From positions 7,510 through 71,509 of the forward strand of contig QENH01000200.1 in NCBI GenBank assembly GCA_003336485.1: a DNA stretch of 64,000 nt, written 5' to 3'. The position numbers were made by a program, and so were the translations under genes. This DNA is from Candidatus Methanophagales archaeon (GTDB lineage: Archaea > Halobacteriota > Syntropharchaeia > Alkanophagales > Methanospirareceae). Below, piece by piece: positions 4,649-55,859 of the stretch; within the stretch, counting starts at the first letter, position 1; each line of letters opens with the position of its first letter. The notes beneath the pieces were generated by a model. The model did not search any database, was not told the origin of the DNA, and saw only the letters and a program-made list of their open reading frames with translations.

Positions 4649-7249
4649 ATGGATAAAATAAGTATAAATATGAAAGGGCTAGAAAAAACATCAATAATCT
4701 ATGGTGTCATATTGGCGCTGATATTCTGTGTTTCGCTTGCTATACGGGGTGTTTTACCATATGCGAGTGTTTTTACTGATACATTCGTCAAATTTGGCGG
4801 GAATGACCCTTGGTATAAGATGCGAGTGGTGGAAAACATGCTGCAGAACTTCCCGCATCGTATTTACTTCGACCCGTTCACATATTATCCTCATGGTACG
4901 CATTTGGGCGTTGGACCGTTATTTGATTACTTGCTTGCGGTTATTATATGGCTAATCGGGCTTGGGAACCCTTTCGCTACTTTAGGTCAGCAGGGAATAG
5001 AAGTAATAGGCGCCTGGTATCCTGCCGTTTTGGGCGCTCTTACTGTTTTACCGGTCTATTTTATAGGAAAAGAATTATGGGGCAGGAATGCCGGCATTCT
5101 CTCCGCAGCCCTAATCGCTATTCTCCCGGGACAGTTCTTATCCCGTTCTCTATTGGGCTTCACAGACCATCACGTTATGGAAACGCTATTCAGTACGATA
5201 GCAATCCTATTCATCATTTTAGCGATAAAGGCGGCGAAGAAGAATGGAATAACATTTCATACCATATTGGAGAAGGATTGGACTTCTTTGAAGAGGCCAA
5301 TGCTTTATTCCTTCTTCGGCGGCATATTCCTCGGAAGTTATTACCTCGCGTGGATGGGTGCCTCACTCCTCATCTTTGTTCTGATTATCTTTGCAGCGGT
5401 GCAGTATGTGCTAGACCATGTAAGAGGCGTAAGCACTGATTATCTTTGCATTATTGCCGTCCCGGTTTTTATTATTTCGTTACTGATGATTGCCCCCGTG
5501 CCATATATTGGCTCTCTAACGGGCATTTCGTTTATTTCGCTTCTCCTTGTAATAGCTGTATTTCTTATTTTGAGTGCTCTTTCAGTTTTGATGGACAGGA
5601 AGAAAATGAACCCTTATGGGTATCCTATTGCGATATTGGCTGTTGCTGTATCATCCATCATCATTTTGAGCGCTTTGAGTCTACCCATATACTCAAAGAT
5701 TATCGGAGCGCTTCATGTCTTTATTCCTTCTGCGTCCAGTTTGACCATAGCTGAAGTTCATCCAATGCATATTATATCACAATATACCGGTAAGTTCACC
5801 GATGGTGAAGCCTGGCGCTGGTTCACCACGCCCTTTTTCGTTGCCTTCGCTGCTTTTCCCTTGATCGGCTATAACATAGCGAAGAAATTCAGGGCAGAAG
5901 AGATGTTGATCCTTGTATGGAGTGTGGTAATGCTGTTTGCATGTTTTGGGCAGAATAGGTTCGCGGCATATTATGCAGTGAACGTTGCTCTTCTCTGTGG
6001 ACTCGTTTCCTGGAAGCTAATTGAGTTTGTATGGCTTAGAGGCGCGGGCGATGCGGTAGAAAAAGCGGGGGTGAAGATAAAGGGGAAGACGAAAGGGGGA
6101 GCAGGTATGGAGAAGGCGAAGCCTAATAAAAAAGTGCATAATGATGAGAAGAGACCGGAAATGGATAAAGTAAAGCGGTATTTACGTCCGGAGCTCATAA
6201 TTACGTGCATCATCATAGGCGTAGTTGTATTTATCCCACCGCTAAATGCTTCTTTAGCAAGTGCGAAATATGGTGGCGGTCCTGCTGACGATTGGTACGA
6301 ATCTCTCTCCTGGATGCGGAATAACACGCCCGATACAGGTGTTGACTATTATGCACACTATGACCGACCACCGATAAATGAAACAACCGGTAGAATAGAG
6401 GATTATAACTATCCGGAATCGGCATATTCGGTAATAAGCTGGTGGGACTATGGACATTGGATTACGCGCATCGCTCGTAGGATTCCCGTTGCCAATCCGT
6501 TCGGGCAGCAGGGCATAGGGGGGCCGTATCGTGGGAACGACCCCGGTGCGTGCCTATTCTTCGTTACAACGAACGTAAGCGAAGCGAACAATGTTGCCGA
6601 TGCGCTTGACGTGAAATATGTAGTGACAGATTTCATGATGGCCGATGCATTCAACGCATTTTATAATAAATTCGGTGCAATGACCGTTTGGTTTGGCGAT
6701 ACAGAAGGATATTACACTCAAGTTGTCACTGATGATGGTCCTCAAATAGGGCCAAGTACAAAGTATTTCAGCACGATGGTGGCACGACTTCACATATTCG
6801 ATGGTCGGGGTGTAGCACTAAGTGAAGAGTTCTATCTGGAGCCGTTACGCCATTACCGGCTTATTCACGAATCGCCCAGTAGCATAATTGTCATGGGTGG
6901 GCAACCGATAAAATATGTTAAGGTCTTCGAATACGTAGAAGGTGCGAAGCTAAAAGGAACCGCACCTATTGGTTCCATAGTGGAAATAGCGACAAATGTG
7001 TCTACAAATACGGGGCGCGAATATATCTATGCCGAGCGAATGATGTCAAATGGCACATACGAGTTCCCCGTGCCGTATTCAACGGCGGGGCCGATAGAAG
7101 GCGGCACGAATTTTGACGTTTTCGCATCGCCATATAAAGTGAGTGTAGGGTATGTAACAAACGCAACGGTGGCATGGACAGAGGCGAAGGAGATTAATGT
7201 GCCGGAAGAGGCAGTAATGGACGGCAAAATGATAACGGTGAATTCGTAA
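4649..7249 (+). CDS. aglB: Archaeal oligosaccharyltransferase AglB (STT3 family)
   Basis: 866 aa with a multi-TM N-terminal half, the STT3 hallmark WWDYG (SWWDYGHWI) and a soluble C-terminal domain. Confidence 0.9.
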   Translation: MDKISINMKGLEKTSIIYGVILALIFCVSLAIRGVLPYASVFTDTFVKFGGNDPWYKMRVVENMLQNFPHRIYFDPFTYYPHGTHLGVGPLFDYLLAVIIWLIGLGNPFATLGQQGIEVIGAWYPAVLGALTVLPVYFIGKELWGRNAGILSAALIAILPGQFLSRSLLGFTDHHVMETLFSTIAILFIILAIKAAKKNGITFHTILEKDWTSLKRPMLYSFFGGIFLGSYYLAWMGASLLIFVLIIFAAVQYVLDHVRGVSTDYLCIIAVPVFIISLLMIAPVPYIGSLTGISFISLLLVIAVFLILSALSVLMDRKKMNPYGYPIAILAVAVSSIIILSALSLPIYSKIIGALHVFIPSASSLTIAEVHPMHIISQYTGKFTDGEAWRWFTTPFFVAFAAFPLIGYNIAKKFRAEEMLILVWSVVMLFACFGQNRFAAYYAVNVALLCGLVSWKLIEFVWLRGAGDAVEKAGVKIKGKTKGGAGMEKAKPNKKVHNDEKRPEMDKVKRYLRPELIITCIIIGVVVFIPPLNASLASAKYGGGPADDWYESLSWMRNNTPDTGVDYYAHYDRPPINETTGRIEDYNYPESAYSVISWWDYGHWITRIARRIPVANPFGQQGIGGPYRGNDPGACLFFVTTNVSEANNVADALDVKYVVTDFMMADAFNAFYNKFGAMTVWFGDTEGYYTQVVTDDGPQIGPSTKYFSTMVARLHIFDGRGVALSEEFYLEPLRHYRLIHESPSSIIVMGGQPIKYVKVFEYVEGAKLKGTAPIGSIVEIATNVSTNTGREYIYAERMMSNGTYEFPVPYSTAGPIEGGTNFDVFASPYKVSVGYVTNATVAWTEAKEINVPEEAVMDGKMITVNS

Positions 7250-11366: not shown

Positions 11367-11486
11367 TTTTGAGTTTGAGGGACTTAAACCAAGAGAATTA
11401 TATTAATTCCGCATCTTGTTCATTTTATGTGCTCTTAATGTAAGCAAATAGGATCTGTTTCTTCTACTTATGGTCTTTTATATGAC

Positions 11487-11534
11487 CTTGACGAATAGAA
11501 TAATGCAAAAAGATATGAGGTGAAAAAGAAGAAA
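11487..11534 (+). promoter_or_regulatory. Conserved 5' leader/promoter block shared by the three beta-helix paralogs. The other copies are at 14288-14322 and 16057-16107.
   Basis: The block ATGACGAATAGAATAA(A)TG(C/A)AAAAG recurs immediately upstream of each paralog start. Confidence 0.4.
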
Positions 11535-13940
11535 ATGAAAAAACCAATAGCAATTTTATTGATAGCTGCAATATTAACGCTAGGCATAGCTACAAGTGCA
11601 CTGCCATTCTCATTCTCAACTTGCGCAACTACAAATAACCAAGGATCTCCACTACTGGCAACAGCCATGCCAGCACTAGCACAAGGTAGCAATGGCACTC
11701 CTAGCGAAGGCGACGCCAGTAGTATGGAAATTCCCCCGAATGCTGAGGAAAATGAGATAACAACGGGCAAGGAGTACTTAAACACCATACAAATGGACGG
11801 TTCTTCATCAGCTCTTTCACATGATGATACAAAGCTTCCATACAACTCTTCGGGTAACAGACAAAAAGGCAGAGATATGCATACATTAGGGAAAATACCG
11901 AGTGAATCGGAACAGCCAGTAGAAGTATCAAAACCACCATTGAAAGGATCTAAACAGCCAGTAAAAGTATCGAAACCGCCAATTAAAGAATCCAAACAAC
12001 AATTAGTACATAATATAAACACAGGCGAGGACTTCACCACGATCCAAGCAGCAATAGATGATCCTGATACATTGGATGGACATACGATTACGGTTGATCC
12101 GGGAACGTATACGGAGAATGTAGCTGTTTACAAGTCTTTAACTATACACTCAACCACAGGTAATCCATTAGATACGATTGTTCAGACGAATTCTGATGAC
12201 CATGTCGTTAATGTATCTGCGGATTATGTGAACATAAAGGGGTTTACGGTGTCGGTGATAGATGATTGGATGAAGGCGGGAATATATCTCGGAAGCGGAG
12301 TGGATCACTGCACCCTCTCTGATAATAATATGACAGATACTTGGTGGGGCATCTATCTAGATCATTCCAACCACAACTATCTCTCTAACAATAACGCCTG
12401 GTATAACGAGTATGGCATCTCTCTGGATTATTCCAGCAACAACTGTCTCTCTAACAATAACGCCTGGTATAATAACGAGTATGGCATAGGTCTATCTCAT
12501 TCCAGCAACAACTGTCTCTCTAACAATAATATCTCGGATTTTAACTTTTATAGCATCTACCTATTGGAATCTAGCAACAACTCCATCTCTAACAATAATC
12601 TCTGGAATAACGAGGATGGCATATACCTATCTTATTCCAGCGACAACTATATTTCTAACAATAATGGTTGGGCTAACAATGGTTATTTCATTAGGCTGTC
12701 GCATTCCAGCAACAACCATATTTCTAACAATAATGCATGGTCAAACTTCTTGGGTGGTATCCGTTTGTCACATTCCAGCAACAACACGATCTCCAACATT
12801 AATACTTCGAACAACGATTTCTTTGGCATTTGTCTATCTGATTCCGACAACAACGGTCTCTATAACAATAATGTCTCGAACAACGGGGATTATGGTATCT
12901 GCCTCTCTTCCTCGAGTAGCAACACCATCTACAACAACTACTTCAACAACACGAACAACGCCTATGATGATGGAACCAACATCTGGAACATCTCAAAAGA
13001 AAATGGACCAAATATCATTGGTGGTGACTATCTTGGTGGGAACTATTGGAGCGATTACACGGGCATAGATGAAGATGGCGATGGACTTGGAGATACTTTG
13101 CTACCATACAACTCTTCTGGTGAGATCCAAAATGGCGGTGATTTGCGGCCATTAGTTACAGCGTGTTTTACACCGCCGGAGATCACTTCTTCCGCCCCTC
13201 TTTCTCCGGTTAACGATACAATATGCACATGGCGGACATTTAACGTTACGGTAGATCAGACGGTGAACGTGCGCTGGTATTTGAACGATATGTTATTATT
13301 CACGAACCTAAGTGTGCGAAAAGCCGATTGCACACTCCATGCAGAGGTTGTGGGAGAACACAACGTAACAGCAAATGCATCGAATGCAAATGGCTCTGAT
13401 CTGCAGACCTGGATCTGGAATGTGACTGGTTTTACTGCGGAGCCGCCTGAAATAACATACTATGCCCCCAAATCGCCGGTTAACGATACCCGAAATGCAA
13501 CAAGGACATTCAACATCACAATCAATCAATCAGTAAATGTTAGTTGGCAGATAAACGGCACGACAGTTCAGGCCAATGAGGGTCTAACCGAAGCATCATA
13601 CACGAATACAAGTGCGGTCATTGGGACCTGGAACGTTTCTGTGATTGTAAGCAATGCAAATGGGACCGACATGCAGACGTGGATATGGACTGTAACATCA
13701 CCATGTTTCATAGCAACAGCAGCATATGGGACGCCATTGCACGGAGATATAGACGTTTTGAGAGATTTCCGAGACGAATATCTGATGTCGAATCCAACCG
13801 GGAGAGCATTTGTAAAAGTTTATTATAATGCAAGTCCCCCAATTGCTGATTGGATAAGGGCGAATGAAGGATTGGGAACTGCTGTACGGGAAGGTTTTGT
13901 TAAACCATTAGTGTATGTTACGAGGATGTTTGTAGGCTGA
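11535..13940 (+). CDS. Secreted right-handed parallel beta-helix (PbH1/NosD-like) repeat surface protein, paralog 1
   Basis: Signal peptide [22 protein letters not shown] (ORF-track start at 11520 adds a K-rich extension). Sequence features in order:
- K/P-rich 11-aa repeats ([11 protein letters not shown]);
- ~22-aa PbH1 repeats (GIxLxxSSNNxxSNNN);
- NosD-like tail [28 protein letters not shown];
- two ~90-aa Ig-like repeats;
- a conserved C-terminal CFIATAAYG domain. Confidence 0.8.
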
Positions 13941-14322
13941 GCGGGGATATTTTGAACTGAATTCTGTCATCGCGATAACACGTCCCAAAGTTGGCTCTTC
14001 GTCCGTCCAGAACTCCCACATATCTTCATCACACGCCGAGTCATATATTCGCGGTGAATTCTCAGTATTGTCTGTCTCACCCTTATCCCGGTCATTGGTG
14101 AGCCAAGCAGTAGAGGAGAGCAACAATAATTTTTGAAGGGTGTATAGCGCGGTTTATTTCGATTATTCAGCCCTGCTTGTGGAGTCGAAAGAGGTTTCTA
14201 CTTTTGGAGTTATAAGGTCACAACTTGTTTATACGTTATCAACACACCAAAATAACACCTGTTCATTCTACCGAGGGTGTTTTATATCAACATGACGAAT
14301 AGAATAAATGAAAAGGAAAAAA

Positions 14323-15876
14323 ATGAAAAACCCAATAGCAATTTTATTGATAACTGCAATATTAACGCTAGCCATAGCTACAAGTGCACTGCCATTCTCG
14401 GCTTGCGCAACTACAAATAACCAAGATTCTTTGATACGGGCAACAGCCATGCCAGCACTAGCACAAGATAGTAAGGATACTCCCTGCGAAGACAACGCCA
14501 ATAGTATGGGATTTGCCCCGAACGCTGAGGAAAATGAGATAACAACGGGCAAGGAGGGCTTAGACACCATACAAATGGACGGGTCTTCATCAGCTCTTTC
14601 GCATGGCGATACAAAGCTACCATACAACTCTTCTGGCAACATAAAAAATGGCGGAGATCTGCATACATTAGAGAAAAAATCGAGTGGATCGAAACCGCCA
14701 GTGAAAGTATCGAAACAGCCGGTGAAAATATCGAAACCACCCGTGAAAGTATCTAAACTACTTTTAGTTCATAATAGGGACACCGGCAAGAACTTTGCTA
14801 CGATACAGGCTGCGATTGATGATTCTGATACCGTAGATGGGCATACGATTATGGTTGATCCAGGAACGTATACGGAAAATATAGTTGTTTACAAGTCTCT
14901 AACGATCAGATCAACCACAGGTAATCCGGCGGATACGATTGTCCCGGCTGCGGATTATAGAGCTCATGTCTTTAATGTGACCGCGGATTATGTGACTATA
15001 CGCGGGTTTACGGTATCGGGGGCAAATGATTATGATACACTGCCGGCCGGAATATATCTGGGAAACGGAGTGGATCACTGCAACATCTTAGATAATAATC
15101 TAATTGACAATTGGAGGGGCATCGATATATACTATTCCAACAACAACGGTCTCTCTAACAATAACGCCTGGTATAACGAGTATGGCATCGGTCTATCTCA
15201 TTCTAGCAACAACTGTCTCTCTAACAATAATATCTCGAATTTTAACCATTATAGCATCTACCTATTGGAATCTAGCAACAACTCCATCTCTAACAATAAT
15301 CTCTGGGATAACGAGTATGGCATATATCTGTCTTATTCCAGCAACAACTATATTTCTAACATTAATGGTTGGGCTAACAATTGTCATCTCATTACGCTGT
15401 CACATTCCTGCAACAACCATATTTCTAACATTAATGCATGGTTAAACTTCTATGGGGGTATCAGTTTGTCACATTCCAGCAACAACTCTATCTCAAACAT
15501 TAATACTTCGAACAACGATTTCTTTGGCCTCTATCTATCGGATTCCGACAACAACTGTCTCTATAACAATATTGTCTCGAACAACGGGGATTATGGTATC
15601 TACCTCTCTTCTTCTAGTAGCAACACCATCTACAACAACTATTTTGACAACACGAACAATGCTTGGGATGACGGAAGCAACATCTGGAACATCACGCCGA
15701 CCTTAGGCGAGAATATCATTGGCGGTTGCTTGCAGGGAGGTAATTATTGGAGCGATTACACGGGCATAGATGAAGATGGTGATGGACATGGAGATACAAT
15801 GCTACCATACAACTCTCCTGGTGAGATACAAAATGGCGGCGATTTGCGACCATTGGTACCTAGAACGTTTTTATGA
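14323..15876 (+). CDS. Secreted beta-helix repeat surface protein, paralog 2 (lacks the C-terminal domain)
   Basis: It has the same signal peptide and N-terminal region as paralogs 1 and 3, PbH1 repeats and the NosD-like tail, but ends at ...GDLRPLVPRTFL with no Ig-like or CFIATAAYG domain. Confidence 0.7.
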   Translation: MKNPIAILLITAILTLAIATSALPFSACATTNNQDSLIRATAMPALAQDSKDTPCEDNANSMGFAPNAEENEITTGKEGLDTIQMDGSSSALSHGDTKLPYNSSGNIKNGGDLHTLEKKSSGSKPPVKVSKQPVKISKPPVKVSKLLLVHNRDTGKNFATIQAAIDDSDTVDGHTIMVDPGTYTENIVVYKSLTIRSTTGNPADTIVPAADYRAHVFNVTADYVTIRGFTVSGANDYDTLPAGIYLGNGVDHCNILDNNLIDNWRGIDIYYSNNNGLSNNNAWYNEYGIGLSHSSNNCLSNNNISNFNHYSIYLLESSNNSISNNNLWDNEYGIYLSYSSNNYISNINGWANNCHLITLSHSCNNHISNINAWLNFYGGISLSHSSNNSISNINTSNNDFFGLYLSDSDNNCLYNNIVSNNGDYGIYLSSSSSNTIYNNYFDNTNNAWDDGSNIWNITPTLGENIIGGCLQGGNYWSDYTGIDEDGDGHGDTMLPYNSPGEIQNGGDLRPLVPRTFL

Positions 15877-16107
15877 TTGTACGCAATGTTTTGGCTGCAC
15901 AATGAGATTTTTTTATATATATATCAAGCCAAAATGTTCTAGCAAGCAGGTAGCGGCATTTTCCACTTGAAGAGTAAAAAACCCCTATCGTACCCATTTT
16001 ATGAGTCCCTAACACCTATGAATATGACATATTCACCCAACCTATGTCTTTTTATGCAGATATGATGAATAGAACAAATGCAAAAGTATGATGTGGAAAA
16101 GATAAAA

Positions 16108-19100
16108 ATGAAAACCCCAATAGCAATATTATTAATAGCCGCAATATTAACGCTAGCCATAGCTACAAGTGCACTCTCATTCTCGGCTTGCGCAACTACA
16201 AATAACCAAGAATCTTCGACATTGGCAACAGCCATGCCAGCACTAGCACAAGGTAGCAATGGTACCCCTAACGAAGACGACACCAGTAGTAGGGGATTTA
16301 CCCCGGATGCTGTGGCATGTGTCTTAACAAAGGACGTGGTGGCCTTTGATACCGTACAAATGGACGGTTTTGCATCTGCCCTTTCGCATGAAGATACAAC
16401 GCTTCCATACAACTCTTCGGGTAACAGACAAAAAGGCAGAGATATGCATACATCAGGGAAAATACCGAGTGAATCGGAACAGCCAGTAGAAGTATCAAAA
16501 CCACCATTGAAAGGATCTAAACAGCCAGTAAAAGTATCGAAACCGCCAATGAAAGAATCCAAACAACAATTAGTACATAATATAGACACAGGCGAGAACT
16601 TCACCACGATACAAGCTGCGATTGGTGATCCTGATACCGAGAATGGGCATACGATTACGGCTGATCCGGGAACGTATACGGAGAATGTAGTTGTTTACAA
16701 GTCTTTAACTATTCGCTCAACCACAGGAAATCCAGCAGATACGATTGTTCAGGCGGCGGATTCCTATGATCATGTCGTTAATGTGACTGCGGATTCTGTG
16801 ACTATAAGCGGGTTTACGGTGTCGGCGATAGATGGATATGCTGCAGGGATATATCTTGGAAGCGGAGTGGATCACTGCAATATCTCTGATAATAATGTAA
16901 CTGTCACTTATGGGTCGGGTATATATCTAGATTGTTCTAGCAACAACCTTATCTCTAACAATAATGCCTGTGGTAACGGGCCATCTGGCATCGAGCTGTC
17001 TCATTCCAACACCAATACTATCGTTAACAATACTGCAGACTATAATGACGAATATGGAATCCATCTGGATTATTCCAGCAACAACTTCATCTCTAACAAT
17101 AATGCCAGCGGGAATAACGGGCATGGCATCTATCTATCTCATTCCAACAACAACTCTCTTTCTAGCAATAATGTCTCGCAGTGTTGGTATGGCATCTATC
17201 TATCTCATTCCAACAACAACTCTCTTTCTAACAGTAATGTTTGGGGATTCGATGATGATGGCATCAGTCTATATTATTCTAGCAACAATTCGCTCTATAA
17301 CAATAACGTCTGGCTTAGCAGTGGTACGGGCATCCGTCTGTCATCTTCCAGCCACAACTCGCTCTCTAACAATAATGTCTTTAGTAACCTTGCTTTTGGC
17401 ATCGCGCTATATGGATCCAGCAACAACTCTCTTTCTACTAATACCCTAGAAAATAACGATTATGGCATCGAGCTGTCTCATTCCACCTGCAACTCGCTCT
17501 ATAACAATAATGTCTTGAAGAATGATGAGCATGGCATCCACCTCTCTTCTTCAGATAGCAACCTCATCTACAACAACATTTTCAACAACACGAACAACGC
17601 CTATGATGATGGAAGCAACATCTGGAACATCACAAAAGAATATACCCCAAACGGGAACATCATTGGCGGTCCTTACTTAGGGGGGAACAATTGGAGCGAT
17701 TACATGGGCATAGATAAAGATGGCGATGGACTTGGAGATACTTTGATGCCATACAACTCTTCGGGCGACATCCAAAACGGCGGCGATTTGCGGCCATTAG
17801 TGGAACCATCTGAACTACCAGTACATAATACAAACACAGGCGAGAACTTCGCCACGATACAAGCTGCGATTGATGATCCTGATACCGTGAATGGGCATAC
17901 GATTACGGCTGATCCGGGAACGTATATAGAGAATGTAGTTGTTTACAAGTCTTTAACTATGCACTCAACCTCAGGAAATCCATCAGATACGATTGTTCAG
18001 GCGGCGGATTCCTATGATCATGTCGTTAATGTGACTGCGGATTATGTGACTATACGCGGGTTTACGGTGTCGGGGGCATCATATGGATGGGATATAGCGG
18101 GAATATATCTTGGAAGCGGAGTGGATCATTGCACCATCTCTGATAATAATATAACTGACAATGGGTGGGGCATCTATCTGGATCATTCCAGCCACAACCA
18201 TCTCTATAACAATAATGTCCGGGGTAACGTCGGCGTTAATGGCGGCGGAATCAGGCTGTCATATTCCGGCGGCAACACTCTCTCTAACAATAACGTCTTG
18301 AACAACGAGGATGATGGCATCTGGCTATATCATTCCAACAACAACACTCTCTCTAACATTAATGCATCGCATAACTACTTTGGCATCATTCTGTCACATT
18401 GCAGCAACAACTCGCTCTTTAATATTGATGCTTCTAACGCATTCGCAAGCATATGGCTCTCTCAATCCAGCAACAACTCGCTCTTTAACATTAATGCCCG
18501 CCACAGCTCTGGTGACGCCGGCATTGTGCTGTTTCAATCCAGCAACAACTCGCTCTCTAACATTAATGCATCGGATGTCATGGGTTATCCTGGCATACAC
18601 CTCTCATCTTCCAGCAACAACTCGCTCTTTAACATTAATGCCTTTAACAACTTTTTAGGCATCGAGCTGTCAGATTCCAGCAACAACACTCTCTATAACA
18701 ATAATGTCTCGAATAACTATCTGTGGGGCATCGAGCTGTCACATTCCTCCTGCAACTCGCTCTATAACAATAATGTCTCGAACAATTATGATCTTGGCAT
18801 CCGCCTCTCTTCTTCAAACAATAACCGCATCTACAACAACATTTTCAACAACACGAACAACGCCTATGATGATGGAACAAACATCTGGAACATCACAAAA
18901 GAATATACGCCAAACGGGAACATCATTGGCGGTACTTACTTAGGGGGGAACAATTGGAGCGATTACATGGGCATAGATGAAGATGGCGATGGACTTGGAG
19001 ATACTTTGCTGCCATACAACTCTTCGGGCGACATCAAAAATGGCGGCGATTTGCGGCCTTTAGTGGAACCATCTGAACTACCAGTACATAATATAGACAC

Positions 19101-20616
19101 AGGCGAGAACTTCGCCACGATACAAGCTGCGATTGATGATCCTGATACCGTGAATTGGCATACGATTACGGCTGATCCGGGAACGTATACGGAGAATGTA
19201 GTTGTTTACAAGTCTTTAACTATTCGCTCGACCACAGGAAATCCATCAGATACGATTGTTCAGGCGGCGGATTCCTATGATCATGTCGTTAATGTGACTG
19301 CGGATTCTGTGACTATAAGCGGGTTTACGGTGTCGGGGGCACCAAGTTGGGATAGTGCAGGGATATATCTTGGAAGCGGAGTGGATCTTTGCACCATCTC
19401 TGATAATAATATAACTGACAATGGGAGGGGCATCTATCTGGATCATTCTAGCCACAACACTCTCTCTAACAATAATGCCCTGAAGAACTTTTGGTGTGGC
19501 ATCTATCTAGATTATTCCAGCAACAACAAGCTCCTCAACAATACTATCTTTCGAGGCGATTATGGCATCTATCTGGATTATTCCAGCAACAACTTCCTCT
19601 ATAACAATACTGTCGATTGGAGCGGTATGGAAGGCATAATTATGTCACATTGCAGCAACAATTCGCTCTTTAACAATAATGCCTGGGGTGTCAATGGTCC
19701 AGGCATCCATCTATCTTCTTCCAGCAACAACAACAATCTCTCAAACAATAATGCCTGGCATAACCTTGATGGTATCATTCTGTCACATTGCAGCAACAAC
19801 TCGCTCTTTAACAATAACGCCTGGTATAACGAGTATGGCATAGGTCTATATCATACCAACAACAACACTCTCTCAAACATTAATGCATCGCATAACGACT
19901 TTGGCATCTATCTGTATCATTGCAGCAGCAACTCGCTCTTTAACAATAACGCCTTTAACAACTATTTTGGCATCGAGCTGTCACATTCCAGCAACAACTC
20001 TATCTCAAACATTAATACATCGAACAACGATTTCTTTGGCATCTATCTATCTGATTCCGACAACAACTGTCTCTATAACAATATTGTCTTGAAGAATGAT
20101 GAGCATGGCATCCACCTCTCTTCTTCAGATAGCAACCTCATCTACAACAACATTTTCAACAACACGAACAACGCCTATGATGATGGAAGCAACATCTGGA
20201 ACAGCACAAACACCACGGGACCGAACATCATTGGTGGACCTTATATTGGCGGTAACTATTGGTCTGATTATGCAGGTATTGATTCGAATCATGATGGTTT
20301 TGGCGATACGCCTTATAATATACCGCCAGGCGGCATTAGCAAAGATTATTTACCGCTGGTTCCTGTTGAACCATCACCATGTTTCATAGCAACAGCAGCA
20401 TATGGTACGCCATTGCACGATGATATAGACGTTTTGAGAGATTTCCGAGACGAATATCTGATGATGAATCCAACAGGGAGAACATTTGTAAAAGTTTATT
20501 ATACATTGAGTCCACCGGTTGCGGATTTGATAAGGGGAAATGAAGGACTGGGAACTGCTGTACGGGAGGGTTTTGTTAAACCCTTAGTGTATGTTACGAG
20601 GATGTTTGTAGGCTGA
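16108..20616 (+). CDS. Giant secreted beta-helix repeat surface protein, paralog 3 (three tandem NosD-like modules)
   Basis: The same signal peptide is followed by three ~420-aa modules, each starting [22 protein letters not shown] and ending ...[13 protein letters not shown], then the C-terminal CFIATAAYG domain. The ORF-track start at 16078 is an upstream in-frame ATG. Confidence 0.8.
16576..20345 (+). repeat. Three tandem ~1.25 kb coding modules inside paralog 3. They start near 16576, 17824 and 19087, with a period of about 1248-1263 bp.
   Basis: Read directly from the sequence. Module ends are about 95% identical at nucleotide level (for example 17650-17822 vs 18900-19083), while interiors differ in PbH1 repeat content. 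Confidence 0.85.
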
Positions 20617-20636
20617 GCGGGGATATTTTATTCCAT

Positions 20637-26025: not shown

Positions 26026-26844
26026 ATGACGCTAAGAGATTATTTAAAGGATTCTGAGATGAAAGGTGTTGAACTACAAAGGAATCCGTATCTCATCAGT
26101 GCTTTCTATTTGATCCTGATAACAATTGCAGAGTGGGTAACAAATTATCATCCTAAATTTGGGATTGCATCACACGTTTTCATCATGATCCTACTGTTTT
26201 GTCATTTCGCTCTGGTATCAGACAAAGATGATAATTTAGCACATTATCTTATTGCTCTTCTTCTCGCCCCGCTTATACGTATACTGAGCTTATGTCTACC
26301 ATATATACAGTTCAGTTGGATCTTTAGCTTCACGCTCGTGTCAATACCACTATTCATAGCGATCTTTACCTGCATGTGGCTGCAAGGGCTACACGGAGCG
26401 GATGTTGGGTTTTCGTCACCCAAGTTGAAGTACCTGCCACTAGAAGCAGGAATAATTCTTTTTGCCGTAGCTCTGGGAATAGCGGAATATATGATTTTAA
26501 GACCCAACCCATTGCCGGCGTCAGGAACATTGAATTTAATCATCGCATCACTACTTTTAATAATATGCACGGGCTTTTTAGAGGAGCTGATCTTCAGGGG
26601 TTTGCTACAATATAATGCAGTAAGAGTGATGAGTAAATGGCGTGGTATCTTTATTGTATCCGCTATTTTCGGCGTGCTTCACCTTGGAAATATATCCCCG
26701 TGGCATTTAGATTGCTTCTTTGCTGGCGCTGTTGGGTTTCTGTTTGCCGTAGTGCGCGATAAAACAGGATCAATACACGGTATAAGCTTCGCGCACGGCA
26801 TTATAAACATAGTTCTGTTTTTAATCGCACCGCTTTATTTTTGA
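26026..26844 (+). CDS. CPBP family intramembrane glutamic endopeptidase (CAAX protease / Abi)
   Basis: Multi-TM protein with the FLEELIFRGLL motif (EExxxR) and the FGVLH motif. Confidence 0.7.
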   Translation: MTLRDYLKDSEMKGVELQRNPYLISAFYLILITIAEWVTNYHPKFGIASHVFIMILLFCHFALVSDKDDNLAHYLIALLLAPLIRILSLCLPYIQFSWIFSFTLVSIPLFIAIFTCMWLQGLHGADVGFSSPKLKYLPLEAGIILFAVALGIAEYMILRPNPLPASGTLNLIIASLLLIICTGFLEELIFRGLLQYNAVRVMSKWRGIFIVSAIFGVLHLGNISPWHLDCFFAGAVGFLFAVVRDKTGSIHGISFAHGIINIVLFLIAPLYF

Positions 26845-26901
26845 TCGTCTGTATTTTTCTTTTGAGTTCAAAACACAGATTATCGCCTTTAGCCCTTACC
26901 C

Positions 26902-27774
26902 CTACCTCTTTTTCAACCGGTTACTTATAGAAGGATAGAAGATAAATGCCAGAGGCACGAGGAATAGCATGACGATTGCCACTTTGCCTGTGGCCGAGCC
27001 AGAAGAGAAGAGGGTAAGAAGAATAGGGTCTTCCTTTTGTACCTCAAAGAGGTAGGGGACGGTATCGCCCATGAACTCCTTTGTTCTATTGAGAATGCCA
27101 TCGTAAGAGCCGTTACGCGATGCGAGAGCTGAGATACGGACCATAGTAACGGTATTTGACGCGAAAGTTTCCTTCACGTAGAAATAAAGCACGACCCTTC
27201 GCTCTGTTACCTTCCCTTCTTCCTTTGATTCCTTCGTGACAATGAGCTTCTTTGCTGCTATCGTCTCATTAAAGACTAAACCATGTTCTCTTTCATACTC
27301 TTCCGACCGCCAAAATCCGGCTGCCCAACTTACATTATGCACCGGCACCTCTGCTATGCCTTCCTCTTTTATCGTATAGCCCAACGCGGGATAGCAAACA
27401 ATAGGCGGATGGAAGCTAGAGCGGTTATTTGATTGCATGATGAGAAAGAATACCGGCTGGTAATATTTCGGATGCGAGTATGCACGCATGAGCATTACGT
27501 CCGCGTTCAAGCGTTCTGCAAGACCTGTCGTGTTGTACTCATAGGCAGTCCAATTCCCTAGCTGCTCTGGGAACTTCTGTAGGTGCTCGTTGTTTCCGAA
27601 GTCCATCTTTGTTCGAACAGGCGTGGCATCGTCAGAAGCATACGAGAGCTCGGTATCTATCGTGGTGATCGTTCTGGCGAGTATCATAGACGGTGTTGAA
27701 AAGACGATGATAATAACGAAAACGAGCAAAAGGAGCCCTATGACCCGTGAATATTCTTCAAAGAAACTCCTCAT
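26902..27774 (-). CDS. Archaeosortase-associated protein, possible EpsI analogue
   Basis: 290 aa with an N-terminal TM, a large extracytoplasmic domain and a C-terminal TM. Its start is a 4-nt ATGA overlap with the stop of the archaeosortase gene, in the same gene order as bacterial epsH-epsI. Confidence 0.4.
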   Translation of the reverse strand: MRSFFEEYSRVIGLLLLVFVIIIVFSTPSMILARTITTIDTELSYASDDATPVRTKMDFGNNEHLQKFPEQLGNWTAYEYNTTGLAERLNADVMLMRAYSHPKYYQPVFFLIMQSNNRSSFHPPIVCYPALGYTIKEEGIAEVPVHNVSWAAGFWRSEEYEREHGLVFNETIAAKKLIVTKESKEEGKVTERRVVLYFYVKETFASNTVTMVRISALASRNGSYDGILNRTKEFMGDTVPYLFEVQKEDPILLTLFSSGSATGKVAIVMLFLVPLAFIFYPSISNRLKKR

Positions 27775-28628
27775 TTCGTTCTCCCCGTAACTTTACACCC
27801 AAAGAGACTACTTATTAGTATCAAGAATATAAGCGCGATGATGAATAGCAGGGGGCTGAAAAGGGTATGGTAAAATCCTGTTGCCGTCTCCGCGCCATAT
27901 GCGTTTGCAATTAGTAGTAGAGATGTAACCCGGATGATATTGGCGAGGATTGCAAGAGGGGGCGTTATACAGAGCAAGATGATCTTCTTATACAACGGGC
28001 ACCGTAAAATGTAGATGAATAGCGTTGCTATTGCCAATAGCGAGATGAGCGAATTCATGCCGCTGCATGGCAAACCGATAATGAAAGCGGCATCTTCAAG
28101 CCGAATCTCCGCCCCTATCCGTGTAACGGGAATACCAAGCATTTCGAGAATTAATGCAGGGAAATATGCAGACAGAGTTTGTAGTGCGTTTGCGACTTTT
28201 CCCAGGAACTCTGGTGGCAATGGGATAGCGAAGATAAGATAGGCGATTGGAAATATGAGAGTGCGCATCAGAGGTTTACCATAGAAATAAAGGATCAAAC
28301 CGCTTGTTGTGAATAAGAATGATAGCGCGGATAAGAAAGGGAAGAGCTTGATAATGCCGATGATATAAAGGATAAGGCCAAAGGCGAAGACGTAGATTCC
28401 TGGTTTACAGGGTTCCTGATTGTCTCCCGGCTCGCTCTTCTTATAGTCTCTGACATTCCACCACGCGATAACGCATGATATAATTAGGATCAAGAACCCA
28501 TGTGTGTAGCACGGATCGGTCCGCCAGAAACTGGCTAACCATATCGGTATAAAGTTGGAAAAAGGCGATGGGAAATATAAAATGACTAAGAGCAGCAAGA
28601 TAAAAATAGTGGTCTTCTTCATCTTCAT
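27771..28628 (-). CDS. Archaeosortase (exosortase/archaeosortase family transpeptidase)
   Basis: 285 aa, polytopic. It carries the family catalytic motif PCSGMNSL (Cys), a conserved Arg in NIIRVTSLL, and an N-terminal lysine-rich stretch followed by a TM. Confidence 0.7.
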   Translation of the reverse strand: MKMKKTTIFILLLLVILYFPSPFSNFIPIWLASFWRTDPCYTHGFLILIISCVIAWWNVRDYKKSEPGDNQEPCKPGIYVFAFGLILYIIGIIKLFPFLSALSFLFTTSGLILYFYGKPLMRTLIFPIAYLIFAIPLPPEFLGKVANALQTLSAYFPALILEMLGIPVTRIGAEIRLEDAAFIIGLPCSGMNSLISLLAIATLFIYILRCPLYKKIILLCITPPLAILANIIRVTSLLLIANAYGAETATGFYHTLFSPLLFIIALIFLILISSLFGCKVTGRTK

Positions 28629-28661
28629 ATACTTCTCTTTATACTAAGTTCTTAATATTTA

Positions 28662-29030
28662 TTATTTGAGTATCGCGTTGTACTCATAAGTGAACTCCAT
28701 TGTGACAAGCTGGAAACGATAATTAACGCTATATCTTCTCTCGGTCTTCGCCGGAAATACCATCTCGTTCTGAGCACCATCTTCGTTCCACCTTATTGAT
28801 ACCACAATATCGCCGGAATTATTCAGCGTCACAATATGACTACCAACAATGCTTGCATGCCATAAATCCACATGTATCTCAAAATCGGTCACCTCACAGC
28901 CGAGATCGTTTATCTGTATCGCATGTTTTTCGTTCTCGTTACCCATTAATCCAAATGCAGATGCCGAGTTAAGAGAAGCCGCAAGAAGTAATGCTATAAC
29001 AACGCCAAATAAGAGATCTCGCCTTCCCAT
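28662..29030 (-). CDS. Small secreted protein
   Basis: Signal peptide MGRRDLLFGVVIALLLAASLNSASA, 122 aa. It lies 34 nt upstream of the archaeosortase gene on the same strand. Confidence 0.45.
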   Translation of the reverse strand: MGRRDLLFGVVIALLLAASLNSASAFGLMGNENEKHAIQINDLGCEVTDFEIHVDLWHASIVGSHIVTLNNSGDIVVSIRWNEDGAQNEMVFPAKTERRYSVNYRFQLVTMEFTYEYNAILK

Positions 29031-29098
29031 AATTATATTAATAGATACAAAAAATATAAATACGAGCAGGACCTTCTTGTGTAAGAAGGAAATAAAAG

Positions 29099-30076
29099 AT
29101 GAGAACTGCGTGGTTGGGGATACGGATGGGGCTTTGTGTATTGCTCCTGTTTGCGGTGATCTATGCGCTATTAATCGTCATAGCTACAGCTACCGGAGTG
29201 GGCACGCCGATAGTTTACGCTCTACTTGCTGCTGGATTAGTGGCTGTTCAGTTCATTATAGGTCCAAAGATAGTAGAGAAGACCATGCACGTTCGCTATG
29301 TTTCAGAGACGGAAGAGCCGGAATTGCATCGGATGGTGACGGAATTAGCGATGAAAGCAGGGATACCCAAGCCAAAAGTAGGGATTTCTGAAATAGCGAT
29401 ACCGAATGCGTTCGCGTTCGGCACATCAAAAAGGAAAGCAAGGGTTTGTGTTACTAGGAGATTGATGCAGATGCTAAGCAGAGATGAGTTAGAAGCGGTT
29501 TTAGGGCATGAAATATCACACATACAGCATCACGATATGGTAGTTATAACCGCGCTGAGTGTAATACCGATGATCTGCTACTTTATCTATTTCAGCTTCT
29601 TCTGGTCCGGTCTCTTTGGTGGCGGCGATAGCGATAGAGAAGGGGCGTTACCTATGATGGCGATTGCACTTATTGCATTTGCATTATACTTCATAAGCAA
29701 CCTCATCGTGCTTTATGGATCGCGAATAAGGGAATATTATGCAGATGCCGGAAGTGTAGAGCTAACGAATAAGCCTCATGAACTTGCTTCTGCGTTATAC
29801 AAAATGATCTATGGTAGTGCAGGAGTGAAACAAGAGAAGTTGAAGAAAGAACTGGGCAGCATGCGCGCTTTCTTTGCCGCAGATCCTGTAACAGCACGAG
29901 GCGATTTAAAGGATCTGAGCGCTGCTGACCTGGACAAGGATGGTAAGATAGACGCCCATGAACTGAAAATATTCGCAGAACGGGCGCAGGTGAGTCGTGC
30001 GGACAGGTTGATGGAGATCTTCTCCACGCATCCAAATCCCGTGAGTAGAGTTAAGAAGTTGGGTGAGTATTTATAA
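29099..30076 (+). CDS. htpX: HtpX-like M48 zinc metalloprotease
   Basis: HEISHIQHHD (HExxH) plus an HtpX-like TM topology, 325 aa. Confidence 0.8.
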   Translation: MRTAWLGIRMGLCVLLLFAVIYALLIVIATATGVGTPIVYALLAAGLVAVQFIIGPKIVEKTMHVRYVSETEEPELHRMVTELAMKAGIPKPKVGISEIAIPNAFAFGTSKRKARVCVTRRLMQMLSRDELEAVLGHEISHIQHHDMVVITALSVIPMICYFIYFSFFWSGLFGGGDSDREGALPMMAIALIAFALYFISNLIVLYGSRIREYYADAGSVELTNKPHELASALYKMIYGSAGVKQEKLKKELGSMRAFFAADPVTARGDLKDLSAADLDKDGKIDAHELKIFAERAQVSRADRLMEIFSTHPNPVSRVKKLGEYL

Positions 30077-39366: not shown

Positions 39367-40503
39367 CTACCTTTTTCGTCCTACCAGATATGCTACTGCT
39401 AATAGCCCTGCAATAGCGAATACCATTTCAAACCCTATTGTTTCCCTTGGACTAGGTGTGGCCATTGTCCTGGTTGTCGCAGGTGTAGAAATTAGATCCA
39501 CTTTAACAGGAAGCATTATGCTTTTATATTCCGCAGTTGACTTATCTCCTCCAAAATAATAACAAATATCGCTCTCAACATTGAACACACCAACTTGATT
39601 CGTTTTTATGCCCACCCCGATATGTCTTTCCTTTCCCGGTTCTACGGTATAATTAGCTGTATACATACCTGCTCCAGATTCTATAAATTCTATGGATGTA
39701 ATGCTCATTCCTGATGGGACTTTTAGTATCAGTTGCAAAGTCATCGTTGGCTTTGTTATTAGATTGACCGCAGAAAGAGATAATAGAATATCTTCTCCAA
39801 CAGTGACATCTGTCTTTTCTCCATGGAGATAAACACTTGGTTCTCCGGGTTTGGGAGTTGGTGGCGGGGTCTCAGTTGGTGTTTCTGTTGGCATAGAAGT
39901 GTATGTTGATGCCTGTGTGGACGTAGTTATTGTTGGAGTTGGTATGTAGGAGGGGGTAGGTGTTATAAATGGCGTGGGACTCGGTGCTTGTAAGTGGAAA
40001 GGAGTAATAGTAGGTAAATGTTTTGGTGAAGGAGTTATAGCAGGAGTTGGACTTGGTGAAGGTGTTGGTGAAAGTATTGGTGAAGGTGTTATGGTAGGAG
40101 TTGGACTTAGTGTGGGTGTTGGTGAAGGTGTTGGCGAAGGTGTTGGCGAAGGTGTCAATACCTTATAACTCACGGAGATAGTTTTTGTAGCGGTATCACC
40201 AGCATTATCAGTTGCTTCCACTTTTATTATATTGGTGTTGGGGTTTAACGAAATGGTTTTACTCCAGAAAGATGTGCCTGATGCAAGCTCTCCGTTGACC
40301 AGGACACCCTCAATTACTGCTCCCGGAGAAGTGGGGAATGCTGTACCAGAAACCGTTATGGTACCCGTAATCACTTCTGCCTCATCTTCAGGTGTAGCTA
40401 TTTCCAACAAAGGAGCACTTGCAAGCACGGATGTCAAAGAATATATAAGTAAGAAAATGCTGATAGGTACTATAATGAAACCCCTCAAACCTATCCTTTT
40501 CAT
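39367..40503 (-). CDS. PGF-CTERM-anchored surface protein with a Pro/Thr/Ser-rich linker
   Basis: - Start placed at [19 protein letters not shown] (signal/TM).
- Long TPSPTPSP linker.
- C-terminal [23 protein letters not shown], a PGF-CTERM archaeosortase A sorting signal. Confidence 0.7.
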
Positions 40504-40513
40504 GCCAACCTCT

Positions 40514-42811
40514 TTACTGTTCCAATCTAACAATTGGTATCCAAGTATTATAAACTATTATGCTTAGATATGTTTCGGGACCCGTATCAAATTCACTTTC
40601 TGTTGCAACAATAGTAACTTCCCTTGGCTTTGCGATATTTCCTTCTTCATCATTGGCATGTATTATAAAAGTATATCTACCCTCCTTCTTCGGAACAAAG
40701 CTCACCATATACCTATTTCCTACCTCTTCTTTTAACTCCAATGTGGTCAAGTTTATTTCATACATTGTATCATTGCTTATCTGGTCTATGGCAAAATCAG
40801 GTTCAATCAGGGTTACATATACACGCTCTACCTTCAAATCATCTACTACTACCGCCCATATCTCTATTTCTTCACCCACCATCACAGTCTGATTATCAAT
40901 TGAATCTAAGATAGTTGGAGGGAAATCAAGGGCTCCGAATTGGGATCCTATGTATGTTGACGATGACAAAGAGCCATCTCCAGGATATACTGGTGCGGGA
41001 TGCCCAATTCCATCACCATTGTCATCCAACAACGAAATTTGAGGCGATAATCCTACTTTATCGAGCGTATCAGAATATGCTTTTATCTCAGGCACATTTG
41101 ATGTTTCTTCAAAAGCTTCTTTTATGTTCTTCCCTTTTGCTATCGAGTTGAAGAAATATTTTGAGAATGTAGCGCCTGTTTGCTCTATCAACGAATTCGC
41201 TTTTGCGCCCGTTGATGTTACAATTATCCTGCCAGCCGTTGAAAGATTACAAATGAAACTGCCAGAACTACACGATTCTATCACCACCGTTATCTTATAG
41301 CATCCCGTATCAGCGGACAATTCATCCAGATTAGAATCCAACTCCGAAGAACTCAATGTCTCTCCAAGTCCTTTTAACAGAAGCATATCTTCTTTTCCAT
41401 GACCTATTATGTAAATGAACAATGGGACCTCGGTGCCTACTTTCCCCTCTGCCCATGTGTTTATCGCATACGAAATATTTTCCTTTGATGTTTGCATGTC
41501 TACTCTCTCAAAGTTCATGGGACTGAGATAAAATAGCCTTTCATCAGTGAAGCCGCGCTTCAAGAGTGTGTCATAAGTCATGTTTGCTGTCAGGTCAATG
41601 TAATTCTGCGATAGCCATTCGTCGTTTCTGCCAACGATTATAATTGCATATCCTACTTCAATACGGTATTGTTTTACGGTAAAACACATAGTTTCGCTCT
41701 TTATCGCTTTCCCTCCGATAACACAAGAGGCATTTACGTTCCATTCTCCGACCTCATTTGGCGGAAAAGTAATGGCGTAGGAGCCGCTTAATGTGGTCAT
41801 TACAGGCTGCTCTGCAATTTCACCTGTGGGCGATTTGAATATCATGGTTACTATTGTGCTGGATGCAGGAACTATTTCTCCAGAAACCGTTACGCTTTCT
41901 GATCTGTTCAACATAGCAGGACTTACTGAGATTGTGATATGTGTTGGTGGGGTTGGAGTGGGAGTTGGATATTCGTAAGTTGTGGGGGATGCAACAGGTG
42001 TTGGCGTTTGCTGAGCTGAGGGTGAAGGCGTTAATGTTTGAGAAGGTGAAGGTTCTGGAGTGGGAACCGCTCCTCTTGCCTCCTTCTTATCCACTATAAA
42101 ACCAAAAGCAATACCGCTACCATCAGTTTCGAGCTTAATCTTTAACGTGTCCCCAGTGAACCATTCCGTCCACATATCCGCTTCACTTAAAGGGCCCCAA
42201 CTGTATCCATATGTTGCAAGTTCATTCTTGTCTATATCGAGTATCCGCACATAATCATCTTCCAAGAGTTCTATCTTGGTAAAATGAATCCTCATTTCAG
42301 CTACTCCCGGTTCCGAGATGGTCCAGATGTTTTCATAGTTGTTTGCATACGGATGATAGGTTTCTGCTAAATATGAGGATGTTGGTGCTGATTCTGTCCG
42401 CCTTTCCACTTCATCCACTATAAAACCAAAAGCAATACCGCTACCATCAGTTTCGAGCTTAATCTTTAACGTGTCCCCAGTGAACCATTCCGTCCACATA
42501 TCCGCTTCACTTAAAGGGCCCCAACTGTATCCATATGTTGCAAGTTCATTCTTGTCTATATCGAGTATCCGCACATAATCATCTTCCAAGAGTTCTATCT
42601 TGGTAAAATGAATCCTCATTTCAGCTACTCCCGGTTCCGAGATGGTCCAGATGTTTTCATAGTTGTTTGCATACGGATGATAGGATTCTGCTAAATACGA
42701 AGCTGAAACAGTTTGGATTCCGAGTGGGAAGATTCCGATTGACAAGACACATATCAAAAGGATACTACCTAAAAATATGCCGAGCTTCATGATTTTGCCC
42801 TTTCTCTTCAT
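40514..42811 (-). CDS. Secreted legumain/C13-like cysteine peptidase with two tandem CUB-like domains
   Basis: - Signal peptide.
- Two ~130-aa near-identical CUB-like domains ([18 protein letters not shown]...YVRILD...).
- Peptidase core with His in IIGHG and Cys in VIESCSSG, the C13/caspase-like dyad arrangement. Confidence 0.55.
42091..42694 (-). repeat. Near-perfect tandem duplication of the CUB-like domain coding segment (2 copies of ~324 bp)
   Basis: Read directly from the sequence: 42091-42370 and 42415-42694 are nearly identical. Confidence 0.85.
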
Positions 42812-42870
42812 GCTCTCTTCACACCATATAATAAAAAAAGTGAGGCTATTTTTTTTTTCGCCTCACAAGA
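42812..42870 (-). terminator. Hairpin plus oligo-T terminator-like structure after the stop of the PGF-CTERM gene at 42846-43538
   Basis: On the minus strand the sequence is GTGAGGC-GAAAAAAAAAATA-GCCTCAC followed by TTTTTTTT, and the hairpin spans the stop codon. Archaeal termination typically occurs at oligo-T tracts. Confidence 0.5.
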
Positions 42871-55568: not shown

Positions 55569-55859
55569 ATGGAGAATGGCGGGATAAAGATAAAGGTAGT
55601 GGAAAGGGCGGAGAATGAGCTGCGGCTGGAGATAGAAGGGGAGGGCAATACGCTTTTAGCACCGCTGACTTCCAAGCTCCTGGAGAATGAAAATGTAGAC
55701 CTAGCAACCAATAGCATGACACATTCGCTGCTGGGCAATTCCATATTGTATGTGAAGATGAAGGAGGGTGATGCTTTAGAAGCCATAAAATCTGCACTTA
55801 CTTCTCTTGCTTCCGACTTTGAAGAGTTTGGGCGGAAATACCGGGCGGCAATAGTCTAG
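55569..55859 (+). CDS. rpoL: DNA-directed RNA polymerase subunit L (Rpo11)
   Basis: 96 aa. IKVVERAENELRLEIEGEGNTLLAPL matches the Rpo11 N-terminus. Confidence 0.8.
   Translation: MENGGIKIKVVERAENELRLEIEGEGNTLLAPLTSKLLENENVDLATNSMTHSLLGNSILYVKMKEGDALEAIKSALTSLASDFEEFGRKYRAAIV

Follow-up and report, generated by a model that had tools for sequence, protein, structure and literature searches.

CFI-box-CTERM tails on tandem β-helix proteins of a Methanophagales archaeon: a widespread C-terminal domain with a possible role in holding proteins at the cell surface

The window analyzed here is a 64,000-nucleotide stretch of DNA from a Candidatus Methanophagales archaeon (assembly GCA_003336485.1, contig QENH01000200.1, positions 7,510 to 71,509 of the forward strand). 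It carries three tandem same-strand paralogs, which we term genes 1, 2 and 3, coding for exported-looking NosD-like β-helix proteins of this ANME-1-related organism. Genes 1 and 3 end in a domain of 78-80 residues that begins with the motif CFIATAAYG in both and has its cysteine 78 residues before the stop codon. By sequence comparison these tails are assigned to the catalogued CFI-box-CTERM family, in a subtype without a transmembrane (TM) helix; the domain is thus already named, and it is very widespread and not archaeal-specific. The best-supported reading, for which we infer the mechanism and which we rate at an even chance, is that the CFI-box is a membrane-proximal retention module for surface proteins.

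The CFI-box tails of genes 1 and 3

The NCBIfam model NF041770 (‘CFI_box_CTERM’), which has a curated cutoff of 40 bits, matches gene 1 at residues 729-792 (89.4 bits, E 1e-25) and gene 3 at residues 1435-1498 (86.0 bits, E 1e-24), and scores 95.3 bits with the domain alone; gene 2 gives no match to it. Both copies display the features of CFI-box-CTERM proteins: a score more than twice the curated cutoff, the CFI[AV]TAAYG motif with its starting Cys (CFIATAAYG in the window copies), the downstream motifs LRxFRD and YYxxSPPxA, and a C-terminal position. Nothing sets the window copies apart from the family, and no Pfam model matches the domain at E ≤ 1. The profile comparison proposed by an earlier reading of the window from its letters alone (hereafter the sequence-only reading) has thus returned a named family. 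That reading had listed two outcomes as telling against it, namely a match to a well-characterized family with an unrelated role and restriction to these two copies; what was found is a family without a well-characterized role that is not limited to them.

All three paralogs have signal-peptide-like N-termini, and their upstream parts are identified as NosD/Beta_helix by Pfam. In gene 1 a single NosD-like parallel β-helix module ends at 13157 and is followed by an immunoglobulin (Ig)/PKD-like region at 13158-13697, with a weak PKD hit in Pfam, and then by the CFI-box. Gene 3 combines three tandem NosD-like β-helix modules with the CFI-box, and gene 2 has one β-helix module with neither the Ig-like region nor the CFI-box. 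A six-frame motif scan finds exactly two copies of the CFIATAAYG tail in the window. The sequence quoted for them in the sequence-only reading is exactly present and in frame at the ends of genes 1 and 3; its interval for the second copy (20380-20616) is exact, while its start for the first (13690) lies 8 nt early and out of frame, the true extent being 13698-13940.

The two tails are identical at 72 of 80 residues (90%) and at 218 of 240 nucleotides, and their DNA is 91.5% identical over 258 nt, with ~75-80% identity in the rest of the paralogs. Between genes 1 and 3 the ratio of nonsynonymous to synonymous substitution rates (dN/dS) is 0.28 in the domain (dS 0.22) and 0.51 in the N-terminal region and first β-helix module (dS 0.39). 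The higher DNA identity and lower dN/dS make the tail the best-conserved part of genes 1 and 3: the CFI-box is under stronger purifying selection than its passenger.

Each window copy contains a single Cys and no TM segment (the top 17-residue Kyte-Doolittle mean is 0.7-0.8), and no TM helix would be gained by frameshift or readthrough after either stop codon in any of the downstream frames. Nothing else was detected at the tails: the list of open reading frames (ORFs) has no antisense ORF of at least 80 aa opposite either interval; the Rfam scan of the window has as its sole match a tRNA at 55845-55915; and a terminator scan of 13600-16200, spanning the 3' ends of genes 1 and 2, gave no hit. 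The 13 nt past the stop (TGA GCGGGGATATTTT) are the same after genes 1 and 3 (13938-13953 and 20614-20629), beyond which the two diverge; a duplication or gene-conversion tract probably ends here.

Conservation and predicted fold

In 337 distinct domain sequences, numbered from the Cys as position 1, the invariant or nearly invariant positions are C1, F2, I3, A4, T5, A6, A7, Y8, G9, L19, R20, F22, R23, D24, L27, G33, V37, Y40, Y41, S44, P45, P46, A48, I51, R62 and P68. The first eight positions are partly fixed in this set by the pattern used for selection; profile-based alignments free of the pattern give the same conservation picture. The Cys is missing in only two of 268 retrieved proteins, both of them short fragments, and alongside it the essentially invariant polar and aromatic set comprises R20, R23, D24, Y40, Y41, S44 and R62. 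That both prokaryotic domains of life preserve a single Cys together with three Arg, one Asp, three Tyr, one Ser and one Thr suggests a binding or chemical site over plain scaffolding, and on our best reading the Cys would be the key functional residue.

AlphaFold2 predicts the last 78 residues to fold compactly into a bundle with one short helix and three long ones. For the 80-residue domain with 107 sequences the mean predicted local distance difference test score (pLDDT) is 90.6 and the predicted template modeling score 0.77, with helices at positions 5-10 (IATAAY), 16-27, 33-55 and 57-76; a run with 103 residues and 54 sequences gave three helices with pLDDT >90 and the motif as a coil of lower confidence. 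Neither Foldseek against the PDB nor a sequence-profile search of the PDB found a confident structural relative. The structure prediction that the sequence-only reading had suggested has therefore yielded a compact helical bundle without a confident relative, and together with NF041770 and the conservation profile it bears out, at the level of a model, the view of the tail as a discrete conserved folded domain with one essentially invariant Cys.

Spread and architecture of the family

A word-indexed search with the 80 residues retrieved 122 proteins, the best 84% identical and several already labeled ‘CFI-box-CTERM domain-containing protein’. Named carriers among them belong to Syntrophoarchaeum, Methanosarcinales, Halobacteriota, Thaumarchaeota, Aenigmarchaeota, Hydrogenedens, Chloroflexota, Thermodesulfobacteriota, Clostridia and Leptospiraceae. 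A 54-sequence profile shows the family to extend over archaea and bacteria: of the representatives of 50%-identity clusters it matches 30,682 at E ≤ 1e-3, and 23,778 still match at E ≤ 1e-10. The peptide CFIATAAY occurs at more than 595 sites in GTDB species genomes, 581 of them confirmed as relatives; the closest of these loci belong to Methanophagales/ANME-1 (78-81% identity) and Ca. Ethanoperedens, with Natrialba swarupiae and Clostridium magnum DSM 2767 among the carriers in culture.

Architecture was examined in 88 proteins from 80 genome loci, 72 of the proteins being full-length. They are large and have diverse passenger domains, and the domain always lies within ~75-120 residues of the C-terminus. 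The N-terminus is signal-peptide-like in 57 of the 72 full-length proteins and in 80 of 103 top representatives. Among the 15 full-length proteins without a clear signal, one has a Tat-like twin-arginine N-terminus and one or two have weak signal- or lipoprotein-like ones; most of the others may reflect mis-assigned start codons. The residue preceding the Cys is Gly in ~40% and Pro in ~20% of members, often as part of poly-Gly or poly-Pro linkers. Several unrelated CFI-box passenger proteins often occur within one genome, and one representative has a ‘choice-of-anchor L’ passenger domain.

A TM helix directly follows the domain in 41 of the 88 genome-locus proteins and in 152 of 250 database proteins; 38 of the 41 have a cluster of Lys and Arg after the helix. 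Such a positive-inside tail places the CFI-box on the outer membrane face in the TM-bearing proteins. The statement of the sequence-only reading that the domain has neither TM helix nor basic tail accordingly holds for the window copies and fails for the family, roughly half of which carries both. The window proteins fall outside the TM-bearing subtype, as they end 13 residues after the model and their hydropathy means peak at the low values given above. Their own subtype ends in KPLV[YH][IV][ST]R[ML]FVG and is common to ANME-1, Syntrophoarchaeum and Methanosarcinales relatives; another TM-less subtype, in Chloroflexi, has a conserved W..LW ending.

A retention role and its competitors

The reading of the CFI-box as a retention module is best supported on account of its anchor-like usage, that is, its position at the extreme C-terminus of large multidomain proteins, mostly with signal-peptide-like N-termini and with Gly/Pro-rich linkers before the domain, and of the TM helix that frequently follows it. 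Further support comes from the several unrelated passengers that can share the domain within one genome, from the carrier with a ‘choice-of-anchor L’ domain, and from the predicted fold, the conservation and the stronger purifying selection of the CFI-box. In the proposed mechanism an N-terminal signal peptide would lead to export of the protein and its passenger domains would be displayed outside the cell, with the CFI-box lying beside the outer face of the membrane and holding the protein at the cell surface. A stop-transfer TM helix and Lys/Arg cluster right after the domain would reinforce this retention in roughly half of the members. The window subtype has no TM helix, so that retention would have to come from the bundle and/or Cys chemistry: the bundle itself may bind a partner protein or else a conserved ligand in the membrane or envelope, the invariant Cys may provide a covalent link or a lipid, or both may apply.

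Several observations weigh against this reading. A minority of members is clearly cytoplasmic, which means that the basic activity of the domain cannot be specific to the exterior. The helices have hydrophobic moments in the ordinary globular range (μH 0.3-0.5), which, together with the missing TM helix, leaves nothing to mark the window copy as a membrane binder. In the sampled ANME-1, Syntrophoarchaeum and Methanosarcinales relatives only TM-less forms occur, so docking onto a TM-bearing paralog is unsupported for this organism. A search of 932 clustered ORFs within ±10 kb of the 80 loci found no conserved partner gene; the only neighbors to repeat were generic ABC ATPases, in 10 loci, and type II secretion genes, in 4. 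The other four of the five AlphaFold2 models are weaker (pLDDT 66-80), and a search of a full-text library found neither a paper nor an experiment on the CFI-box domain, its motif, NF041770 or IPR049886.

The cytoplasmic members take several forms. In small archaeal proteins the CFI-box is combined only with an N-terminal zinc ribbon, and there is neither signal peptide nor TM helix. RefSeq plasmids, too, encode proteins without either that already carry the product name CFI-box-CTERM from the Prokaryotic Genome Annotation Pipeline (PGAP) (loci L087-L093): one of 283 aa on plasmids of Acinetobacter lwoffii that are 5.2 kb in size; one of 344 aa on Haloquadratum walsbyi PL47, encoded between HNH and restriction endonuclease genes, which by eye resembles an Mrr-type restriction nuclease in its N-terminal part and a WYL domain in its middle; and several of ~140 aa on conjugative plasmids of Acidovorax, Cupriavidus, Burkholderia and Xanthomonas, encoded shortly past traG and beside genes for peptidases (M48 or S49) and nucleases (Cas4/PD-(D/E)XK or PLD-type). 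One further, unannotated match lies in the Clostridioides phage pCD1602_4. The cytoplasmic members, and the spread of the family over envelopes of very different kinds, fit poorly with binding specific to the cell wall or S-layer, the role entertained by the sequence-only reading; S-layer or cell-wall binding as such cannot be the basic activity of the domain.

Four other explanations have to be weighed against a retention module. The CFI-box could be a processed sorting signal, which a dedicated enzyme would recognize, modify at the invariant Cys (for example with a lipid) and remove. The invariant Cys does stand at the domain boundary just past flexible linkers, many relatives have a TM helix and Arg/Lys cluster after the domain, and the ‘-CTERM’ name, as we read it, is in line with the naming of sorting signals. 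A CPBP/Rce1-like protease is among the proteins of the window, and the TraB-like barrel fusions described below bring to mind TraB and its partner TraA, a MYXO-CTERM protein. Tripartite signals that contain a Cys have been described together with their CPBP proteases (Haft, bioRxiv 10.1101/2023.06.07.544157), but the CFI-box is not among the signals of that preprint. Moreover, the Cys is not adjacent to the TM helix that follows but separated from it by a complete folded bundle of more than 60 residues, and in the window copies, which lack the helix, an intramembrane protease could not reach its site. The CPBP protein of the window falls far under every Mrt cutoff (41.6 bits vs 130) and is encoded at a distance of 5.4 kb; the surroundings of the domain in the 80 loci show no recurring CPBP, sortase or other enzyme; and cytoplasmic members exist. 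We therefore regard a processed signal as unlikely. A module for oligomerization or folding, in which the helical bundle would join passengers such as β-helices and propellers into dimers or trimers or act as a C-terminal intramolecular chaperone in any compartment, would suit a domain found on exported and cytoplasmic proteins alike, and the predicted compact bundle has more hydrophobic residues than a three-helix core needs. β-helix passengers, moreover, often need C-terminal assembly domains, as in the chaperone domains of phage tailspikes. Such a structural role leaves the invariant unpaired Cys and the Arg/Asp/Tyr/Ser set unexplained over ~30,000 clusters, and there is neither a heptad or coiled-coil signature nor a match to Peptidase_S74 or any Pfam model; we hold it to be somewhat less likely still.

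Self-processing would need no enzyme: the Cys would attack the preceding peptide bond in an N-to-S acyl shift, as in Hedgehog proteins and inteins, and release the passenger or pass its new C-terminus to an acceptor. The invariant Cys is indeed the first residue of the C-terminal domain, often in the context G/CF, which is also that of the Hedgehog site; a catalytic network could be made up of the conserved Thr, Arg, Asp and Tyr; and the domain occurs in both compartments with no conserved partner. The predicted fold, however, is all-helical and not Hint, no sequence or structure match to any autoprocessing family was found, and Pro, which is unfavorable to the N-S acyl shift in inteins, precedes the Cys in ~20% of members including both window copies (S-P-C). 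This makes self-processing highly improbable. The remaining explanation treats the CFI-box as a self-contained Cys-dependent unit without a dedicated sortase, in which the Cys and the Arg/Asp/Tyr network would link the protein covalently to a universal membrane or envelope component or cut it at the Cys. If true, such a unit could act on whichever side of the membrane it lies, in archaea as in bacteria, and would explain the surface, zinc-ribbon, nuclease-type and plasmid carriers together with the lack of a partner gene; we consider it improbable. A membrane-proximal retention module thus remains the reading that we favor.

Comparison with known C-terminal modules

The CFI-box resembles the PGF-CTERM signals of archaeosortase targets in being an archaeal C-terminal module on surface proteins, and the window has an exosortase-family protein, an EpsI-like protein and two PGF-CTERM proteins. 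The window CFI-box differs in lacking the PGF motif, TM helix and basic tail; genes 1-3 have no match to TIGR04126 or PF18204 at E ≤ 1, and two other window proteins match PF18204. The exclusion of PGF-CTERM and other sorting signals by the sequence-only reading thus stands for the window copies, which show no TM helix, basic tail or model match. With the Cys-containing tripartite signals of myxosortase substrates the family shares an invariant Cys in a C-terminal signature of exported proteins, the TM helix and Arg/Lys cluster of many relatives, and the tie of some bacterial members to a TraB-like barrel. Those signals, in contrast, span 20-40 residues with the Cys directly before the TM helix; in the window copies the Cys is followed by a ~65-residue helical domain with no TM helix or Arg cluster, and no cognate protease was found for the CFI-box.

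Two well-known kinds of folded C-terminal module, of ~70-150 residues, act at or after export: the type IX secretion C-terminal domain, a β-sandwich restricted to Bacteroidota-type diderm bacteria, and the Peptidase_S74 chaperone, which has a Ser nucleophile and trimerizes. The CFI-box is likewise a folded C-terminal module on diverse exported or β-helix passengers, but its predicted helical bundle matches neither and it is present in archaea and bacteria. Two further candidates were rejected. The Hint domain of Hedgehog proteins and inteins is all-β with TxxH and terminal motifs, whereas the CFI-box is predicted all-helical and has no Pfam or PDB match. For the LYR-motif proteins (Complex1_LYR; NDUFB9, NDUFA6, LYRM4, L0R8F8) a profile match together with a significant structural match was not obtained.

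Loss of the domain from gene 2

In its 3' half gene 2 has 89% DNA identity to gene 1 as far as position 13156, and the match runs to 13161 with 54 of the last 63 nt identical. Beyond it stands a 46-nt scar that aligns to 13614-13659 of gene 1, near the end of the Ig-like region, with 36 of 46 identities (next-best ungapped match 20/46; blastn-short E 5.6e-6). It is frame-shifted relative to gene 1 and covers the stop codon of gene 2 (15874-15876). At the junction there is microhomology (TTGCG.CCATT.G) between TTGCGACCATTGGTACC in gene 2 and both TTGCGGCCATTAGTTAC and GTGCGGTCATTGGGACC in gene 1. These features fit a microhomology-mediated deletion of ~469 nt which, with the accompanying frameshift, would have taken the Ig-like region and the CFI-box from gene 2.

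The proposal of the sequence-only reading that gene 2 had lost the domain is thereby borne out by an out-of-frame Ig-like remnant over its stop codon, and the gap of ~200 bp that it described after the gene measures 201 nt from 15876 to the start of gene 3; no recognizable coding remnant of the CFI-box is present in these 201 nt. The gene 2 product is probably released or anchored in some other way, perhaps through its N-terminus, and may be non-functional.

Genomic setting

Table 1. Coordinates of the paralogs, their CFI-box domains, the scar of gene 2 and the envelope-processing genes, in window positions.
Feature	Position	Strand	Remarks and basis
Gene 1	11520..13940	+	806 aa; stop codon 13938-13940; ORF list, Pfam, module boundaries
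CFI-box domain of gene 1	13704..13937	+	Cys729 (codon at 13704) to Gly806; NF041770, motif scan, AlphaFold2
Gene 2	14308..15876	+	522 aa, truncated paralog; ORF list, no NF041770 match
Putative deletion scar of gene 2	15846..15891	+	aligns to gene 1 13614-13659, near end of Ig-like region
Gene 3	16078..20616	+	1512 aa; stop codon 20614-20616; ORF list, NF041770, Pfam, module boundaries
CFI-box domain of gene 3	20380..20613	+	Cys1435 (codon at 20380) to Gly1512; NF041770, in-frame translation
CPBP/Rce1-like intramembrane protease	26026-26844	+	
EpsI-like protein	26902-27774	-	
Exosortase-family 8-TM protein	27771-28628	-	
HtpX	29099-30076	+	

The N-termini of the paralogs (window 11520-11640, 14308-14420 and 16078-16200) have a lipobox-like Cys at residues 35, 33 and 38 of genes 1, 2 and 3, preceded by a Lys-rich stretch and a hydrophobic core and standing in the context FS(A/T)C; it could be a candidate N-terminal lipid anchor independent of the C-terminal domain. 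N-x-S/T sequons number 29 in gene 1 (3.6 per 100 aa), 47 in gene 3 (3.1 per 100 aa) and only 7 in gene 2 (1.3 per 100 aa), and a gene for the oligosaccharyltransferase AglB lies just upstream of the paralogs at 4649-7249. Mutually alike antisense ORFs of 124-202 aa overlie the 5' ends of the three paralogs (11468-12040, 14268-14642 and 15999-16607, minus strand); they are most simply a by-product of the similarity of the sense genes, not evidence of separate genes. A fourth NosD/β-helix gene, with DUF11 repeats, starts at 62136 on the plus strand and runs past the window end at 64000, with its C-terminus, and any CFI-box on it, outside the window.

An envelope-processing cluster at 26026-30076, 5-9 kb downstream of gene 3, encodes the CPBP/Rce1-like, EpsI-like, exosortase-family and HtpX proteins (Table 1); none of these has homologs in the 80 loci. 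The bacterial XrtA/XrtW models outscore archaeosortase models on the exosortase-family protein. At 39367-43538 two proteins with PGF-CTERM tails (39367-40503 and 42846-43538, minus strand) flank a 765-aa legumain-like (Peptidase_C13) protein, which indicates that the organism also has a classical archaeosortase-type sorting system. Genes for Ftr and ThiC are present in the window as well.

Outside the window, three kinds of association hint at partners of the CFI-box and remain anecdotal: the plasmid peptidases described above, barrel fusions and M50 peptidases. Five bacterial representatives (P0126, P0128, P0150, P0174 and P0231) join in a single ORF a passenger, the CFI-box, a TM helix, a Lys/Arg cluster, a signal-like TM helix and an outer-membrane barrel, one of them being confirmed as a single ORF in DNA (L086 2502-4577). 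In the two barrels scanned these resemble the N-terminal part of Myxococcus TraB (NF033763, E 1e-10 and 1e-7); no TraB-like barrels were found in the 80 loci. In two archaeal lineages the gene for the zinc ribbon-CFI-box protein stands directly 3' of one for a ~206-aa M50 site-2-protease-like membrane protein in which HExxH and LDG motifs are present; the two genes are 44 nt apart or overlap by 1 nt (L081-L085; L082 2368-3379, L085 5378-6357). The pair sits in the conserved archaeal L21e-RpoF-DUF655 cluster, and the adjacency is absent in one Methanophagales example.

Implications

A standard annotation pipeline would name genes 1 and 3 ‘CFI-box-CTERM domain-containing protein’. The main corrections to the earlier picture are that the domain is named and widespread, that the absence of an anchor is a trait of the subtype, and that gene 2 appears to be a deletion derivative of a gene-1-like ancestor. 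Cultivable carriers exist in Clostridium magnum, Natrialba swarupiae, Haloquadratum walsbyi and the Acinetobacter lwoffii plasmids. The role of the family, once found, would annotate tens of thousands of surface proteins, among them the abundant β-helix proteins of methane-oxidizing archaea.

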